Shown here piece by piece: positions 168 to 4,011 of a stretch of DNA of 4,275 nucleotides. The stretch comes from a virus (lineage: Duplodnaviria > Heunggongvirae > Uroviricota > Caudoviricetes). The notes beneath the pieces are model-generated. The model saw nothing but the letters and a program-made list of their open reading frames with translations. It was not told where the DNA came from and searched no databases. How positions within the stretch are numbered: the first letter of the stretch is position 1; every line of letters starts with the position of its first letter. Both the position numbers and the translations under genes were made by a program. The stretch lies in the IMG/VR virus record IMGVR_UViG_2671180432_000004. The stretch is one strand, 5' to 3'.

Positions 168-1466
168 ATGACAACACCAGTCTGGCGTAATGATGACCTG
201 GAAGGCGCTGTCATTGGCGCATTCTTTCTGCGTGGGGCAGATCATGAAGTGATGGATATTCTGATCACACTACCGGCGGACATTTTTTCTGTACGAGCGT
301 ATCGGGATATCTACACAGGCATCTGCAGACAGGCCCGTGTTTCAGGAGTGATTGACCCCGTGCTGTTGTGTAATGAGATGCCGGAACTTGCCCCGGTGAT
401 TACTGATACCGGGCGTAAAACCTGGGTGAAGTCTTCACTGGAGCACTATGTTGCAGCGTTGCGGCGCAATGCCGCACTGCGCGATGCAGAAAAAACACTG
501 AATGAGGCGCTGCAGAAATTACGTGATGCGCATACCTGTGAAGCAGCTGAAGATGCCCTGAAGGATGCGCAGAACATGATGGTCACACTGTCGACAGGAA
601 AGGGCGTCATTCAGCCGGTACATATTGATGATGTGCTTCCGGAAGTGGTTGAGCGTGTTGAATGCCGGAATCAGGGGCTGGAGAAATCCAGGACGTTGAT
701 GACCGGTATTGATGAACTGGACGCAAAAACAGGCGGTATGGAGCCCGGAGACCTGGTATTCATTGCCGCCCGTCCTTCGATGGGGAAAACCGAACTTGCG
801 CTGGACATCATCGACAAGGTGACTGAGCAGGGGCATGGTGTGCTTCTGTTCACCATGGAGATGGCGAACATCCAGATTGGTGAACGTATGGTGTCTGCGG
901 CTGGAGGGATGCCAGTATCACGCCTGAAATCTGTGGCTCACTTTGAAGATGAAGACTGGGCGCGTTTCTCACAAGGGGTGGGGCGGATGACCGGGCGCAA
1001 TATCTGGATGGTGGACCAGGCGAACCTGACCATTGATGAGATATGCGCAACAACGAAACACCATCTGATTAAACATCCGGAAACGGCGCTGGTGGTGGTT
1101 GATTATCTCGGGCTGATAAAAACCCGAACCACGGGGCGTCATGACCTTGCCGTGGGTGAAATCTCAAAGGGGCTTAAAGGCCTGGCAAAATCCGGTGGTT
1201 TTCCGTTGATTGCGCTGAGCCAGCTCTCCCGCGGTGTGGAGTCCAGATACAACCCGGATACACAGGCTACAGGCATAGCAGAAATTAATATCACGAAACA
1301 ACGTAACGGTTCTCTGGGGACGATTTACCGGCGTTTTTATAACGGACATTTTCTGCCTGTGGACCAGGAAAGCGCACAGGTTCTTTCCACCCCAATGCGG
1401 CAGCCCCAGCCGCGCAGATACAGCAATACACGTACCGACAGCAGTAAGATGGAGCGTTTCTTTTGA
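168..1466 (+). CDS. DnaB-family replicative DNA helicase (phage replication module)
   Basis: Long ORF in frame 3. Walker A motif AARPSMGKT (about nt 766-792) and Walker B-like ALVVVDYLGL, plus EDEDWARF and GIAEINITKQRNG motifs, align with E. coli DnaB as recalled. The N-terminal DLEGAVIGAFFL block matches the DnaB N-terminal domain. ATG at 168 has an AGAGGTG Shine-Dalgarno 7 nt upstream. The ORF track starts at GTG 27, but that extension (HQPPHCRQDHRRG...) does not look protein-like, so the start is uncertain. Confidence 0.88.
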   Translation: MTTPVWRNDDLEGAVIGAFFLRGADHEVMDILITLPADIFSVRAYRDIYTGICRQARVSGVIDPVLLCNEMPELAPVITDTGRKTWVKSSLEHYVAALRRNAALRDAEKTLNEALQKLRDAHTCEAAEDALKDAQNMMVTLSTGKGVIQPVHIDDVLPEVVERVECRNQGLEKSRTLMTGIDELDAKTGGMEPGDLVFIAARPSMGKTELALDIIDKVTEQGHGVLLFTMEMANIQIGERMVSAAGGMPVSRLKSVAHFEDEDWARFSQGVGRMTGRNIWMVDQANLTIDEICATTKHHLIKHPETALVVVDYLGLIKTRTTGRHDLAVGEISKGLKGLAKSGGFPLIALSQLSRGVESRYNPDTQATGIAEINITKQRNGSLGTIYRRFYNGHFLPVDQESAQVLSTPMRQPQPRRYSNTRTDSSKMERFF

Positions 1467-1477
1467 ACAACCAGACA

Positions 1478-1720
1478 ATGACTTTTACCTCTGAACAATT
1501 GCGTAAACACGCGCAGGAAATGTTGCGACAGGCGGAACAACTGGAAAAAACAGGTGTAACAAAAGATGCCATTCGTCGGGATATGGTGCCAGCGCTCAGG
1601 GAACTGATGCAGGCGAAACATCGCGCACAAAAAGCGGTGGATGAGCTCGTTGATTGTGTGGCAGAGCTGGAAACCAAAGTTGGAAAGTTTGAAAAAATGG
1701 TGCAGGAGGTGCTGCGCTGA
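1478..1720 (+). CDS. Small hypothetical protein, predicted coiled-coil, nin-region-like position
   Basis: ORF between the helicase and rusA in the same orientation. Its stop overlaps the rusA start as TGATG (1718-1722), which suggests translational coupling. The sequence is charged and helical-looking (EQLRKHAQEMLRQAEQLEK...). Alternative start is TTG 1463, which has a GGAG 8 nt upstream; ATG 1478 has no obvious SD. Function unknown. Confidence 0.5.
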   Translation: MTFTSEQLRKHAQEMLRQAEQLEKTGVTKDAIRRDMVPALRELMQAKHRAQKAVDELVDCVAELETKVGKFEKMVQEVLR

Positions 1721-2091
1721 TGCGCCATGAGTTTATTTTACCTTATCCGCCGACGGTGAATACTTACTGGCGACGTCGTGGCAGCACATATTTTGTATCA
1801 AAAGTTGGTGAGCGTTATCGCCGTGATGTGACGCTAATTGTTCGCCAGCAGCGGCTGAAATTAAACCTGTCCGGAAGGCTGGCGATAAAGATTATTGCAG
1901 AGCCACCGGATAAGCGCCGTCGTGACCTGGACAATATCCTGAAAGCACCACTGGATGCGCTGACGCATGCCGGACTACTCATAGACGACGAGCAGTTTGA
2001 TGAAATCAATATTGTGCGCGGTCAGCTCGTTCCTGGTGGGCGACTGGGCGTGAAGATTTATGAAATCACAGGTGATAACGATGGCGCGTGA
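1720..2091 (+). CDS. rusA: Crossover junction endodeoxyribonuclease RusA (Holliday junction resolvase)
   Basis: 123-aa product with the LPYPP..N.Y.R N-terminal motif, DKRRRDLDN acidic motif, DALTHAG, IDDEQ and GGRLGV, all matching E. coli RusA (about 120 aa) as recalled. Sits immediately upstream of Q as in the DLP12 prophage. Confidence 0.85.
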
Positions 2092-2467
2092 TATTCAGCA
2101 GGTTATGGAACGGTGGGGGGCTTGGGCTGCAAACACTCATGAAGATGTATCCTGGGCGTCGATCGCTGCTGGTTTTAAAGGGTTAATTCCGTCGAAAGTG
2201 AAATCACGCCCTCAGTGTTCTGATGATGATGCAATGATAATTTGTGGCTGTATGGCCCGGTTGAACAAGAAAAATCAGGATTTGCACGATTTGCTGGTGG
2301 ATTATTACGTAGGTGGAATGACTTTTATGAGTCTGGCACGGAAACATGGGTGTTCGGATACCTGTATTGGCAAGCGCCTGCAGAAAGCGGAAGGGGTTAT
2401 TGATGGCATGTTGATGATGCTTGATATCCGGCTGGAGATGGACAGATACGTAGAACGAATTATGTAG
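2081..2467 (+). CDS. Q: Late-gene antitermination protein Q (short QuuD-like family)
   Basis: Product [23 protein letters not shown]...[20 protein letters not shown]...[23 protein letters not shown]...GKRLQKAEG matches my memory of the E. coli prophage antiterminator QuuD family (about 127 aa), including the cysteine cluster. ATG 2081 has AGGTGA 5 nt upstream and overlaps the rusA stop by 11 nt. The ORF track start at 2060 would add 7 residues not seen in the homologs I recall. Confidence 0.8.
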
Positions 2468-2471
2468 GTGC

Positions 2472-2502
2472 TTGACCAGACACATTGTCCGGGGCTATAT
2501 TC
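2472..2502 (+). promoter_or_regulatory. Candidate late promoter (pR'-like) immediately downstream of Q
   Basis: TTGACC (2472-2477) begins 5 nt after the Q stop, with TATATT (2497-2502) as the -10. The spacer is 19 nt, which is suboptimal. The position matches where pR'/qut lies in lambdoid phages. Confidence 0.3.
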
Positions 2503-2560
2503 CTCACGCGCCAGCAAAATCTGGCGTCGGGATTGGAACCCCGGATAGAGACCGCGACAG

Positions 2561-2587
2561 ACACACGCCGCGAGCGTGTTTTTTATT
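2561..2587 (+). terminator. Candidate intrinsic terminator (tR'-like)
   Basis: Hairpin ACACGC (2563-2568) / GCGTGT (2574-2579) with loop CGCGA, followed by TTTTT-A-TT. It lies about 60-80 nt downstream of the candidate promoter, which would give a short leader transcript. Confidence 0.45.
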
Positions 2588-2712
2588 GTCGTATGCACGC
2601 GCACATCTGAATTATGGTGGGGCGCATGGGGGAGCTGAAAAGCTCGCCGGTCGGTTTCCCGGTAGTTCCAACCCTGTGCGTCTCACCACCCGATGATTGG
2701 AACCTGACGGTG

Positions 2713-2741
2713 TTGACAGTTTCAGGTTTGCAGTTTACATT
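2713..2741 (+). promoter_or_regulatory. Candidate sigma70 promoter upstream of the ORF6N gene
   Basis: Perfect -35 TTGACA (2713-2718), 17-nt spacer, -10 TACATT (2736-2741; 4 of 6, with the conserved T, A and final T). Could be the promoter of the ORF6N gene or the true Q-modified late promoter. Confidence 0.4.
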
Positions 2742-2776
2742 TCCCCGCGGTGCTCAAAACACCTCGAAAGCGGTAT

Positions 2777-2804
2777 CCACACCCGATAGCCATGTGGTTT
2801 TTTT
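2777..2804 (+). terminator. Weak hairpin plus T7 tract (possible attenuator or terminator)
   Basis: CCACA (2777-2781) pairs with TGTGG (2793-2797) across an 11-nt loop, followed by seven T (2798-2804). The stem is weak, hence low confidence. Confidence 0.2.
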
Positions 2805-2947
2805 GTGTCCAGAATTCTTGGTTTATGACCGGGTGTGCGGCTAATACAATACCAGCAATGGAAATACGCCCGCCGACTTTCGACGGTTTTGAGCGCCCGG
2901 TCACCCTCTCAAAAGGGGTAAATCAAAATATTCGAAAGGACATGTCT

Positions 2948-3511
2948 ATGAATCGCACGTCTATTGAAAAACTCCCGTCACTTACGCATAACCATCTTCC
3001 TGTCATGACAACAGAGCTGCTGGCTGATTTGTACGGAACAGAGCGCCAGCGTTTGACAAACAATTTCAATCGAAACAAAGAACGGTTTATAGAAGGTAAA
3101 CATTTTTTCCTGATAGAAGGTGATGCGTTACGAGAGTTGAAGAACGAAAACTCTTTAAGAGTTTCTGTGAAAATTGCCCGTAACGTTCGCTCCCTCATCC
3201 TCTGGACAGAACGTGGCGCAGCCCGTCACGCCAAAATGCTCGAAACCGATCAGGCGTGGGAAGTGTTCGAAAAACTGGAAGACTGTTATTTCAACCAGAA
3301 ACAGCCACCAGCGGCACAAAACACATCTATCGAAAATGATGGATGCGCATTACTGAGCCACTTCGATAAACACGGTCAGGTTGAGTTCACGGAAAAGGTA
3401 CCCGCCGATGCGATGGTATGTACTCTGGAACGGTTTAAATTTTATCTGGAGCAACACGGGTGGATCGTTGCCCGTAAAGAGCAACTGGTGGAGCGGTTGA
3501 TGCGGTTTTAA
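2948..3511 (+). CDS. ORF6N/KilA-N-like domain protein (phage accessory 'moron' gene; antirepressor-like family), function unknown
   Basis: ORF with AGGA 7 nt upstream of ATG 2948 (ATG 2942 is an alternative). The N-terminal half (LPVMTTELLADLYGTERQRLTNNFNRNKERFIEGKHFFLIEGDALRELK...LWTERGAARHAKMLETDQAWEV) fits the ORF6N domain pattern as I recall it. The C-terminal 70 aa are unassigned. Spot counts give about 41% GC in the first 240 nt versus about 57% in a sampled helicase stretch. Followed by a strong intrinsic terminator. Confidence 0.7.
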   Translation: MNRTSIEKLPSLTHNHLPVMTTELLADLYGTERQRLTNNFNRNKERFIEGKHFFLIEGDALRELKNENSLRVSVKIARNVRSLILWTERGAARHAKMLETDQAWEVFEKLEDCYFNQKQPPAAQNTSIENDGCALLSHFDKHGQVEFTEKVPADAMVCTLERFKFYLEQHGWIVARKEQLVERLMRF

Positions 3512-3528
3512 AAATTTTTTCCGAAAAC

Positions 3529-3542
3529 TTTACGATCGTAAA
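3529..3542. repeat. Perfect 14-bp palindrome TTTACGATCGTAAA with central GATC
   Basis: Read directly from the sequence; the flanks extend it to an imperfect palindrome of about 24 bp (AAAACTTTACGATCGTAAAAAGTT). Starts 18 nt after the ORF6N stop. Confidence 0.5.
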
Positions 3543-3587
3543 AAGTTGAATATCCTGTTAAGAGTGGTTACTACGCCACACAGCTTA

Positions 3588-3612
3588 AACCCGCCGATGA
3601 GCGGGTTTTTTT
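3588..3612 (+). terminator. Rho-independent terminator downstream of the ORF6N gene
   Basis: Stem CCCGC (3590-3594) / GCGGG (3601-3605) with loop CGATGA, extendable by A:T pairs, then a 7-T tract (3606-3612). Canonical intrinsic terminator structure. Confidence 0.7.
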
Positions 3613-3700
3613 ATACCTGAAAAACGGCACAGGACGTTAAACGTGCTGGTGGTCAGATGAGTTTGCAGATGTGATGACATATGGTTATTATTCTGCCTCC

Positions 3701-3777
3701 GGCCCTTTAGCTCAGTTGGTCAGAGCGAGCGACTCATAATCGCCAGGTCGCTGGTTCAAGTCCAGCAAGGGCCACCA
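3701..3777 (+). tRNA. tRNA with CAU anticodon, most likely tRNA-Ile2 (lysidine; ileX/ileZ-like), automated tools would call tRNA-Met(CAT)
   Basis: Cloverleaf folded by hand: acceptor GGCCCTT (3701-3707) / AAGGGCC (3767-3773), anticodon loop CTCATAA with CAT at 3735-3737, T-loop TTCAAGT, discriminator A and encoded CCA (3775-3777). Nearly identical to E. coli ileX as recalled. Confidence 0.85.
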
Positions 3778-3778
3778 A

Positions 3779-3855
3779 CCACCACTAGCTCATCCGGATA
3801 GAGCATCAACCTTCTAAGTTGACGGTGCGAGGTTCGAGTCCTCGGTGGTGGGCCA
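3779..3855 (+). tRNA. tRNA-Arg (anticodon UCU, reads AGA)
   Basis: Acceptor CCACCAC (3779-3785) / GTGGTGG (3845-3851) is a perfect 7-bp stem. D-stem GCTC/GAGC, anticodon stem TCAAC/GTTGA, loop CTTCTAA with TCT at 3813-3815, T-stem CGAGG/CCTCG with loop TTCGAGT, discriminator G, encoded CCA (3853-3855). Only 1 nt separates it from the previous tRNA. Confidence 0.85.
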
Positions 3856-3857
3856 GC

Positions 3858-3933
<76 letters not shown>

Positions 3934-3936
3934 TAT

Positions 3937-4011
<75 letters not shown>

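Follow-up and report, generated by a model that had tools for sequence, protein, structure and literature searches.

What kind of protein is encoded by the gene that stands between the antiterminator gene Q and the lysis genes in a stretch of 4,275 nucleotides (nt) from IMG/VR virus record IMGVR_UViG_2671180432_000004 (Caudoviricetes), and how is the expression of this gene controlled? The whole stretch is referred to below as the window, and the gene is an open reading frame (ORF) at 2948-3511 for an ORF6N protein of 187 amino acids (aa). A sequence-only reading, made before any database search, had taken it for uncharacterised cargo flanked by a promoter and a terminator of its own. The analysis described here suggests a different explanation, which we consider fairly probable, namely that the gene and the noncoding region in front of it form a portable cassette in which an antirepressor of the AnrP type is gated by RNA, the second of two leader modules being c4-like.

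The ORF was found to be real, and its start codon, ATG 2948, is conserved among relatives, while ATG 2942 is not conserved. An in-frame ATG at 2858, which gives a 217-aa form in some Salmonella records, was rejected as the start and was probably mis-called, because it lies inside an RNA of the sRNA-Xcc1 family and because 2858-2947 is conserved as RNA with co-variation of the pairing. The ORF6N/KilA-N-like character that had been proposed for the protein was borne out by a profile search, in which Pfam ORF6N (PF10543) aligned with residues 13-97 with an E value of 8.8e-21 and 74.4 bits in comparison to a gathering threshold of 27.8; ORF6N was the only Pfam family reported at E <= 0.1, with no match to KilA-N (PF04383) or Bro-N (PF02498), and NCBIfam held no family for this protein and none for Q. 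The profile of PHROG 2379, annotated as 'anti-repressor', covered residues 2-187 with its positions 3-187 of 187 (E 4e-85), and the identity to STM2616 (AnrP) of Gifsy-1, which is likewise 187 aa long, was 49% over residues 3-184. More than 4,600 database clusters matched the protein, and the best 120 of them were 64-99% identical and came from Escherichia, Shigella, Salmonella and Citrobacter, the nearest named cluster being that of Shigella sonnei. The description of the protein as uncharacterised was thus given up, since both Gifsy-1 AnrP (PMC4825925) and PHROG 2379 are homologous to it over the full length, and the earlier suggestion of a candidate regulator can be made more specific by homology: the protein is a predicted AnrP-type antirepressor from a family that is large, already named and in part characterised, and not mystery cargo.

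In the AlphaFold2 (AF2) model, a confident N-domain (residues ~12-116) is followed by a disordered linker (116-131) and a small C-domain (133-186) of two strands and two helices, for which the predicted local distance difference test (pLDDT) score was only ~60-68. The C-terminal 70 residues, in which the sequence-only reading had recognised no domain, gave no Pfam match; the PDB sequence search with the protein returned nothing at E <= 1, and a Foldseek search of the model against the PDB returned nothing at E <= 0.001. The same 70 residues recur with 90% identity in other prophages (L087-L092, e.g. L087 1-558), fused there to a Rha-type N-domain (PF09669), which points to domain shuffling between antirepressor families. 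The antB protein of Nil2 and the product of the TL-2011c gene have an ORF6N N-domain ~66% identical over residues 1-124, and in Nil2 antB this is joined to a P22_AR_C domain, whereas the window protein carries a 55-aa domain without a Pfam family. We take the protein as a predicted two-module antirepressor of this usual shuffled kind. In Phi24B, knock-out of Ant, the C-terminus of which is P22-Ant-like, resulted in lower late-promoter activity on induction (PMC3064807).

The same domain composition bears on an alternative that we regard as unlikely, in which the protein would be a sequence-specific DNA-binding transcription factor that turns on the early or Q operon directly through its KilA-N/ORF6N domain, with no sequestration of a repressor. 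The N-domain model indeed matches BFVD predicted viral structures labelled as KilA-N (DNA-binding) or antirepressor, a likeness to KilA-N at the level of the fold that exists only against predicted viral structures, and the Gifsy-1 study showed raised transcripts of the antQ operon and not binding to a repressor; however, relatives with an equivalent N-domain carry a P22 antirepressor C-domain, and the fusion of the C-domain to a Rha N-domain fits modular antirepressors, though Rha proteins are also called regulators.

For the antirepressor cassette that we favour, control would lie in the 480 noncoding 'intergenic' bases at 2468-2947, where four Rfam elements were found above gathering, all of them on the plus strand and all overlooked in the sequence-only reading. 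This region holds two predicted regulatory RNA modules in tandem (Table 1). Module 2, which stands directly in front of the gene, was aligned in nine loci, namely the window, Nil2 (before antB), TL-2011c (before an ORF6N gene) and six IMG/VR loci, and the promoter that had been proposed at this place was recovered in the promoter scan and is conserved in all nine, each of which keeps a TTGACA-type -35 and a -10. The short leader behind the promoter contains a hairpin (GGUG/CACC) with the site a1 (CUCAAAA, 2753-2759) in its loop, followed by b1 (UCGAAAG, 2764-2770), and it ends in a terminator-like hairpin (2777-2781/2793-2797) with a run of seven U (2798-2804), the stem of which shows one AU<->GC swap among relatives; single-sequence folding of the short leader gave no stability signal. 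The sRNA-Xcc1-family RNA presents b' (CUUUCGA, 2877-2883) in a hairpin loop and a' (UUUUGAG, 2887-2893) in its tail, and the complement of this loop, UCGAAAG, occurs twice, in the leader (b1) and over the Shine-Dalgarno sequence of the gene (b2).

This complementarity co-varies among the relatives. Four specificity types were observed in the nine loci, with b1, b' and b2 reading UCGAAAG, CUUUCGA and UCGAAAG in the window and L057-L060, UCAGUAG, CUACUGA and UCAGUAG in L061, CAGAAAG, CUUUCUG and CAGAAAG in L083, and CAAGUAG, CUACUUG and CAAGUAG in Nil2 and TL-2011c, so that all three b sites change together. The b'-b2 and b'-b1 pairings were each 100% paired, with 5 of the 7 pairs changed on both sides (8 distinct sequences for b'-b2). 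The covariation score was reached by none of 500 shuffles, and the pairing fell to 20-53% when the partner was slid by 1-3 columns. The duplex of Xcc1 with a2b2 was predicted by RNAduplex at -21.9 kcal/mol and that with a1b1 at -37.3 kcal/mol, and in the minimum free energy fold of 2748-2960 a1b1 pairs with a'b'. We interpret the element as an antisense RNA of the c4-like type, and the control region as a predicted variant of c4/IsrK-type antisense control.

Module 1 is the counterpart of the isrK-C4 unit of Gifsy-1, with isrK ~90% identical to Gifsy-1 isrK and isrK and C4 together ~85-90% identical in DNA. In its IsrK-like small RNA (sRNA), UUGGAA stands at 2533-2538, and the terminator scan called a Rho-independent terminator at 2563-2579 with a U run. 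The addresses in isrK, C4 and b2 are UUGGAA, UUCCAA and UUGGAA here and UUGGCG, CGCCAA and UUGGCG in Gifsy-1, which again is co-variation and follows the kind of addressing that P1 c4 is known for. Module 1 keeps its a1b1 element and the b2 copy, but without a ribosome-binding site (RBS) at b2, and it has lost its own target gene in the window; Nil2 and TL-2011c keep antA or Rha at the position of the lost gene, and there isrK-C4 controls this separate first gene. Most of the ~80 viral loci with a homolog of the ORF6N gene have isrK and C4 directly upstream of it. The isrK promoter (P_isrK) was also considered as a Q-dependent late promoter, which was judged unlikely because in Gifsy-1 the unit of promoter and isrK accompanies a Q of another family, and because in Nil2 and in phages of the PA2 type this unit is distant from Q.

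Table 1. Positions of the features in the window, with the evidence for each
Feature	Position	Strand	Evidence or remark
DnaB-like helicase gene	168-1466
85-aa predicted coiled-coil ORF	1463-1720		between helicase and RusA
RusA gene	1720-2091
Q antiterminator gene	2081-2467	+	PF06530, E 2e-52; 128 aa; left border of cassette
Module 1 promoter (P_isrK equivalent), TTGACC-18-TATATT	2472-2501	+	promoter scan, 10/12 matches; aligns with Gifsy-1 isrK promoter region
c4-a1b1	2495-2547	+	Rfam, 50.1 bits
IsrK-like sRNA with a1/b1 sites	2508-2584	+	Rfam isrK, 77.5 bits (gathering 50)
C4-type antisense RNA	2610-2693	+	Rfam C4, 71 bits (gathering 45); b' UUCCAA at 2666-2671
Gifsy-1 orf45 homolog	2614-2844	+	76 aa; both AUGs conserved
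b2-like copy GAUUGGAAC behind C4	2695-2703	+	UUGGAA within it at 2697-2702
Module 2 promoter, TTGACA-17-TACATT	2713-2741	+	promoter scan, 10/12 matches
Module 2 short leader (IsrK analogue)	2749-2804	+	alignment of nine loci and pair counts
sRNA-Xcc1-family RNA	2827-2910	+	Rfam RF02221, 77.4 bits (gathering 53), full model length
Target sites a2 CUCAAAA and b2 UCGAAAG	2908-2914, 2932-2938	+	b2 overlaps Shine-Dalgarno AAGGA (2936-2940) of ATG 2948
Predicted AnrP-type antirepressor gene	2948-3511	+	187 aa; Pfam, PHROG 2379, Gifsy-1 homology, AF2 model
Backbone block common to phages without the cassette	3521-3615	+	palindrome, weak promoter-like pair, terminator
tRNA array Met/Ile2(CAT), Arg(TCT), Thr(TGT), Gly(TCC)	3701-4011	+	four tightly packed genes

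The order of the elements is that of isrK-orf45-anrP on the minus strand of Gifsy-1, where Q (STM2617), a promoter, isrK with its terminator, a C4-like RNA (STnc1160), the 187-aa ORF6N protein STM2616 and a tRNA gene follow one another. In the 2016 study of Gifsy-1 (Hershko-Shalev et al.), the protein in this position was named AnrP, the IsrK promoter was reported to drive the operon, expression of AnrP raised the antQ-operon RNA and induced Gifsy-1, and the short IsrK RNA activated translation from the read-through RNA (PMC4825925). In comparison to Gifsy-1, the window has ~250 extra bases (2694-2947) with a second promoter, a leader and an sRNA-Xcc1-type RNA; it lacks the ATGA overlap of orf45 and anrP that is used for coupling; isrJ, which follows the gene in Gifsy-1, was absent from the Rfam scan of the window, which gave only a sub-threshold Trp_leader match on the terminator; and the Q proteins are of different families, with 128 aa (PF06530) in the window and 225 aa in Gifsy-1. 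The length of the orf45 homolog varies from 27 to 76 aa among relatives, and its overlap with the ATG of anrP is found only in the Gifsy-1 type. Here it is probably non-functional as a coupling ORF, and the orf45 translational-coupling model of Gifsy-1 was tested and rejected for the window locus.

Another system to be compared is the immI region of P1 and P7, which, from the work of Citron and Schuster, comprises a c4 antisense RNA, a1b1 and a2b2 sites, icd and ant, and in the P1 region the antisense RNA is cut from the transcript that holds its target. The window resembles immI in that the antisense RNA is encoded upstream of its target and on the same plus strand, which applies to C4 as well as to Xcc1, in that the RNA of module 2 has one target in front of it (a1b1) and another behind it (a2b2), of which the latter covers the RBS, in that the specificity letters change together from one heteroimmune relative to the next, and in that the predicted end product is an antirepressor. 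It differs from P1 in that Xcc1 would act directly on the antirepressor's own Shine-Dalgarno sequence and not on an icd-like upstream ORF, in that the C4 model gives Xcc1 no score, and in having two modules in tandem and an antirepressor with an ORF6N domain.

What the sequences show is the homology to AnrP, the layout in two modules and the co-varying complementarity over the RBS; for the direction of regulation, the processing of the RNA and the target of the protein, we argue from two models, P1 c4 and IsrK (PMC4825925). Transcription of module 2 from its promoter would yield one of two RNAs: a short terminated leader with a1 and b1, or, on read-through, a longer RNA with the c4-like Xcc1 RNA, a2 and b2, and the gene in this order. 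The b' loop and a' tail of Xcc1 could then pair with a2/b2, in cis or after processing, by which the Shine-Dalgarno sequence would be covered and translation blocked as by P1 c4; alternatively they could pair with a1/b1, in cis or on the short leader in trans, by which the RBS would be freed and translation turned on as by IsrK in Gifsy-1. Module 1, with P_isrK, IsrK and C4, would be a source of read-through into module 2 and also of another immunity RNA that is independent of the first. The protein would inactivate a CI-like repressor, either that of its own phage or that of a co-resident one, and thereby favour lytic gene expression, an action that we infer from the homolog.

Several points weigh against this explanation. 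An identity of 49% gives no guarantee of an equal target, and coupling in the style of Gifsy-1 is inapplicable because the orf45 homolog stops 104 nt before ATG 2948. The terminator of module 2, with a stem of 5 bp and a loop of 11 nt, was absent from the calls of the terminator scan, the whole-leader fold was no more stable than shuffles (z -1.6), and the a/a' pairs give no covariation signal because they do not vary among the nine close relatives. The C4 covariance model gives no score to the Xcc1 element, so the likeness of Xcc1 to c4 is architectural and not demonstrated homology. Finally, no repressor or cro gene was visible in the 10 kb upstream in the source chromosomes, and the cognate repressor may be absent, since the prophage is riddled with insertion sequence (IS) elements and none was seen in these 10 kb.

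The borders of the cassette were obtained by comparison with E. coli VL40, in which a related Q is followed by ~200 nt and then by the equivalent four tRNAs and lysis genes, without the cassette. The VL40 spacer between Q and the tRNAs aligns with 3521-3700 of the window, terminator included, and the cassette is therefore placed at 2468-~3515, with the promoter of module 1 at one end and the stop codon of the ORF6N gene at the other. In the terminator scan, the terminator was found as a stem at 3587-3608 followed by a T run; it is assigned to the backbone because VL40 carries it directly after Q without a cassette. A perfect palindrome, TTTACGATCGTAAA, is found at 3529-3542 just past the ORF6N stop codon, with its VL40 counterpart TTTACGTACGTAAA directly after Q. 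It is operator-like, and a weak -35-like hexamer overlaps with it. In the backbone block, a promoter-like pair was noted by eye, TTTACG-16-TATCCT, which is weak, with 8/12 matches and under the scan threshold. The block is possibly the late promoter and terminator (pR'/tR'), and if it is the late promoter, the ORF6N gene would lie upstream of the Q-modified transcript.

We read the segment that lies between Q and this backbone, with its Q-proximal terminator and its tRNAs, as a portable 'immunity-I-like' cassette. Elsewhere, the cassette was found whole or in halves after Q (E. coli EC12), in the nin region (Nil2, RMDEC465) and next to int (PA2/F765-type Shiga toxin (Stx) 2a phages). Among 5,426 complete E. 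coli genomes, the whole tandem cassette was present in only 2 and parts of it in 1,313. In the MEI7BO1-21 prophage of E. coli, a second isrK-C4 pair was observed in the early region by Rha and ash genes (L001 276-363, 175-251), so one phage can carry two such cassettes.

With these borders, what had been claimed for the setting of the gene can be reconsidered. Its position between Q and the lysis genes was confirmed, the tRNA array coming before holin, lysozyme and Rz, and the slot is variable as proposed, since VL40 has a related Q and equivalent tRNA and lysis genes and lacks the gene. The promoter and the terminator are both in place, but the terminator is not the gene's own, as it belongs to the backbone. 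The GC contrast of 41% to 57% was not reproduced: the measured GC content was 46.3% for the ORF6N gene in comparison to 47.0% for Q, 50.5% for rusA, 52.8% for the helicase gene and 50.2% for the whole window, and the GC content at third codon positions (GC3) was 0.489 in comparison to 0.496 for Q. The GC and GC3 profile of the window showed no compositional island and no break against the adjacent Q, and composition gives no evidence of the separate acquisition that had been suggested. Of what the label 'moron' (host-benefit cargo) implies, only the promoter is found, with a terminator that is not own and a composition that is not distinct, and the label does not fit because the gene is a predicted regulator of lysis and lysogeny. 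The high expression that was expected simply once Q antiterminates is also doubtful, and expression is probably not simply Q-driven, because there are two dedicated promoters with antisense gates over the RBS and because the cassette lies upstream of the Q-proximal block.

It is accordingly quite unlikely, in our estimation, that the gene is free-standing cargo read mainly by Q-antiterminated late transcription and serving superinfection exclusion or anti-defence and not the phage's own lysis-lysogeny switch. Such a role would suit the variable slot after Q, the C-terminal domain without a known fold, and a resident prophage that looks defective, in which a host-level function could explain why the gene was retained, and PADLOC gave weak matches to the untested candidate PDC-S05 (residues 19-115, E 1e-7), which we did not accept as a sign of defence since they are weak and the candidate is untested. 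It has to be set against a homolog over the full length for which induction activity has been shown (PMC4825925), the two promoters and the gates, the occurrence of the cassette in early regions of other phages, the absence of any compositional anomaly, and a Q-proximal block downstream of the cassette that relatives keep without it.

The source of the window looks like a defective lambdoid prophage, probably one of Shigella sonnei. In its chromosomes (L007-L012), IS elements interrupt the prophage and flank its replication genes, and the portal gene is truncated by an IS4-family element; close E. coli copies of the ORF6N gene are pseudogenes or are cut by IS66, and the exact 187-aa protein is encoded in thousands of assemblies, probably clonal. 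A silent relic, that is, a cassette passive in an IS-eroded prophage and never productively expressed, would agree with this erosion, with the broken E. coli copies and with a module 1 devoid of its target gene, but it is very improbable with the ORF, the Shine-Dalgarno sequence, the promoters and all complementary sites intact and the protein so often found, even if clonally.

The reading of module 2 as an antisense gate over an antirepressor gene can be extended to the sRNA-Xcc1 family outside the window. The published view of sRNA-Xcc1, an integron sRNA of Xanthomonas campestris, is that of a trans-acting, virulence-linked RNA in plant pathogens; a preprint places Xanthomonadaceae copies upstream of symE, and a paper on APSE phages notes sRNA-Xcc1 upstream of an ORF6N gene. 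None of the papers searched links sRNA-Xcc1 to c4 or offers such a mechanism. In contrast to the published view, the window copy appears to behave as a cis-encoded c4-like gate. A scan for the Xcc1 core pattern, with one genome per species, gave at least 120 stretches, which came down to 95 unique elements that possess a closing stem. A perfect complement of at least 7 nt to the region of hairpin 2 and a' was found within the next 130 nt for 58% of the 95 listed elements in comparison to 15% of cross-locus controls, and the loci with such a complement include Pseudomonas, Enterobacterales, Pasteurellaceae, Azospirillum, Chromobacterium, Robbsia and Desulfovibrio. Among the matches listed, 39 loci have the b'-hairpin match 15-60 nt past the element, with an ATG within 30 nt in 37 of the 39, and more than 20 different b heptamers occur across genera. 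The heptamer is repeated 44-103 nt upstream of the element in 34 of the 38 loci with enough upstream sequence, in comparison to 14% for the control. When the downstream protein has at least 70 aa, it carries Bro-N (11), Rha (4), ORF6N (4) or KilA-N (1) in 20 of 28 cases; the other ORFs behind the elements are small, with 13-86 aa, and could be leader peptides. No clear b2 match at the Shine-Dalgarno sequence was seen in the copies of Xanthomonadaceae, from which the family takes its name.

These results incline us, with modest confidence, to the view that in most Proteobacteria Xcc1 is a c4-like immunity RNA whose 7-10-nt loop address is repeated as an upstream decoy and over the Shine-Dalgarno sequence of the next gene, with dozens of orthogonal classes gating antirepressors and, in integrons, the toxin symE; the window would then have a C4-type and an Xcc1-type gate in tandem before one antirepressor. 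In the Pseudomonas loci L148, L176, L199, L210, L235 and L239, the Xcc1 loop often covers the Shine-Dalgarno sequence of a conserved 27-32-aa peptide (e.g. MDMPITPSLQPEG...RHV) and not of an antirepressor, and this peptide may be an icd/orf45-type leader peptide. Tandem Xcc1-like elements with unlike loop sequences were seen in L083 (2640-2760, 2871-2953) and in L171 (two pattern matches ~305 nt apart), and five Xcc1-like elements in a row are described in a Xylella paper, so stacks of immunity RNAs may be common.

For the gene itself the outcome is deflationary, since the family is known, and the re-interpretation of the RNA carries more interest than the protein; the kind of protein was already known, and what is new would be the mechanistic c4-type reading of the sRNA-Xcc1 family. 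Antirepressors allow prophage induction without the SOS response, and one prophage can wake another; the elements with such cassettes include Stx phages, APSE phages and the IS-eroded source prophage. If the view of the family given above is true, induction of resident prophages could need release from two independent RNA immunities, and the annotation of an Rfam family that is at present considered a virulence sRNA, or even a cross-kingdom one, would have to be changed to immunity RNA. If the address scheme holds, the b heptamer alone would predict cross-talk between cassettes, which gives a testable handle on cross-induction between prophages.

As for the neighbouring genes, in the source chromosomes the ORF6N gene is followed by tRNAs, holin, lysozyme, Rz, HNH and terminase. 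The first tRNA of the array (CAT) was called Met by ARAGORN and is probably a lysidine-type Ile2, because the annotation of the equivalent array in VL40, Ile-Arg-Thr-Gly, has tRNA-Ile at that place. The array resembles the ileZ-argN-argO arrays that stand after Q in Stx phages. On the other side of Q, no family match was found for the coiled-coil ORF, which overlaps each of its neighbours by 1-4 bases and is kept in the E. coli relatives. The DnaB models, among them Pfam DnaB_C and TIGR00665, all align with the helicase only up to residue ~362, which is model position ~364/435, with scores far under the curated cut-offs, and the C-terminal part of its ATPase domain appears to have been replaced, because the last ~70 residues are unlike DnaB. 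In the E. coli relatives the helicase protein is annotated with equal length.

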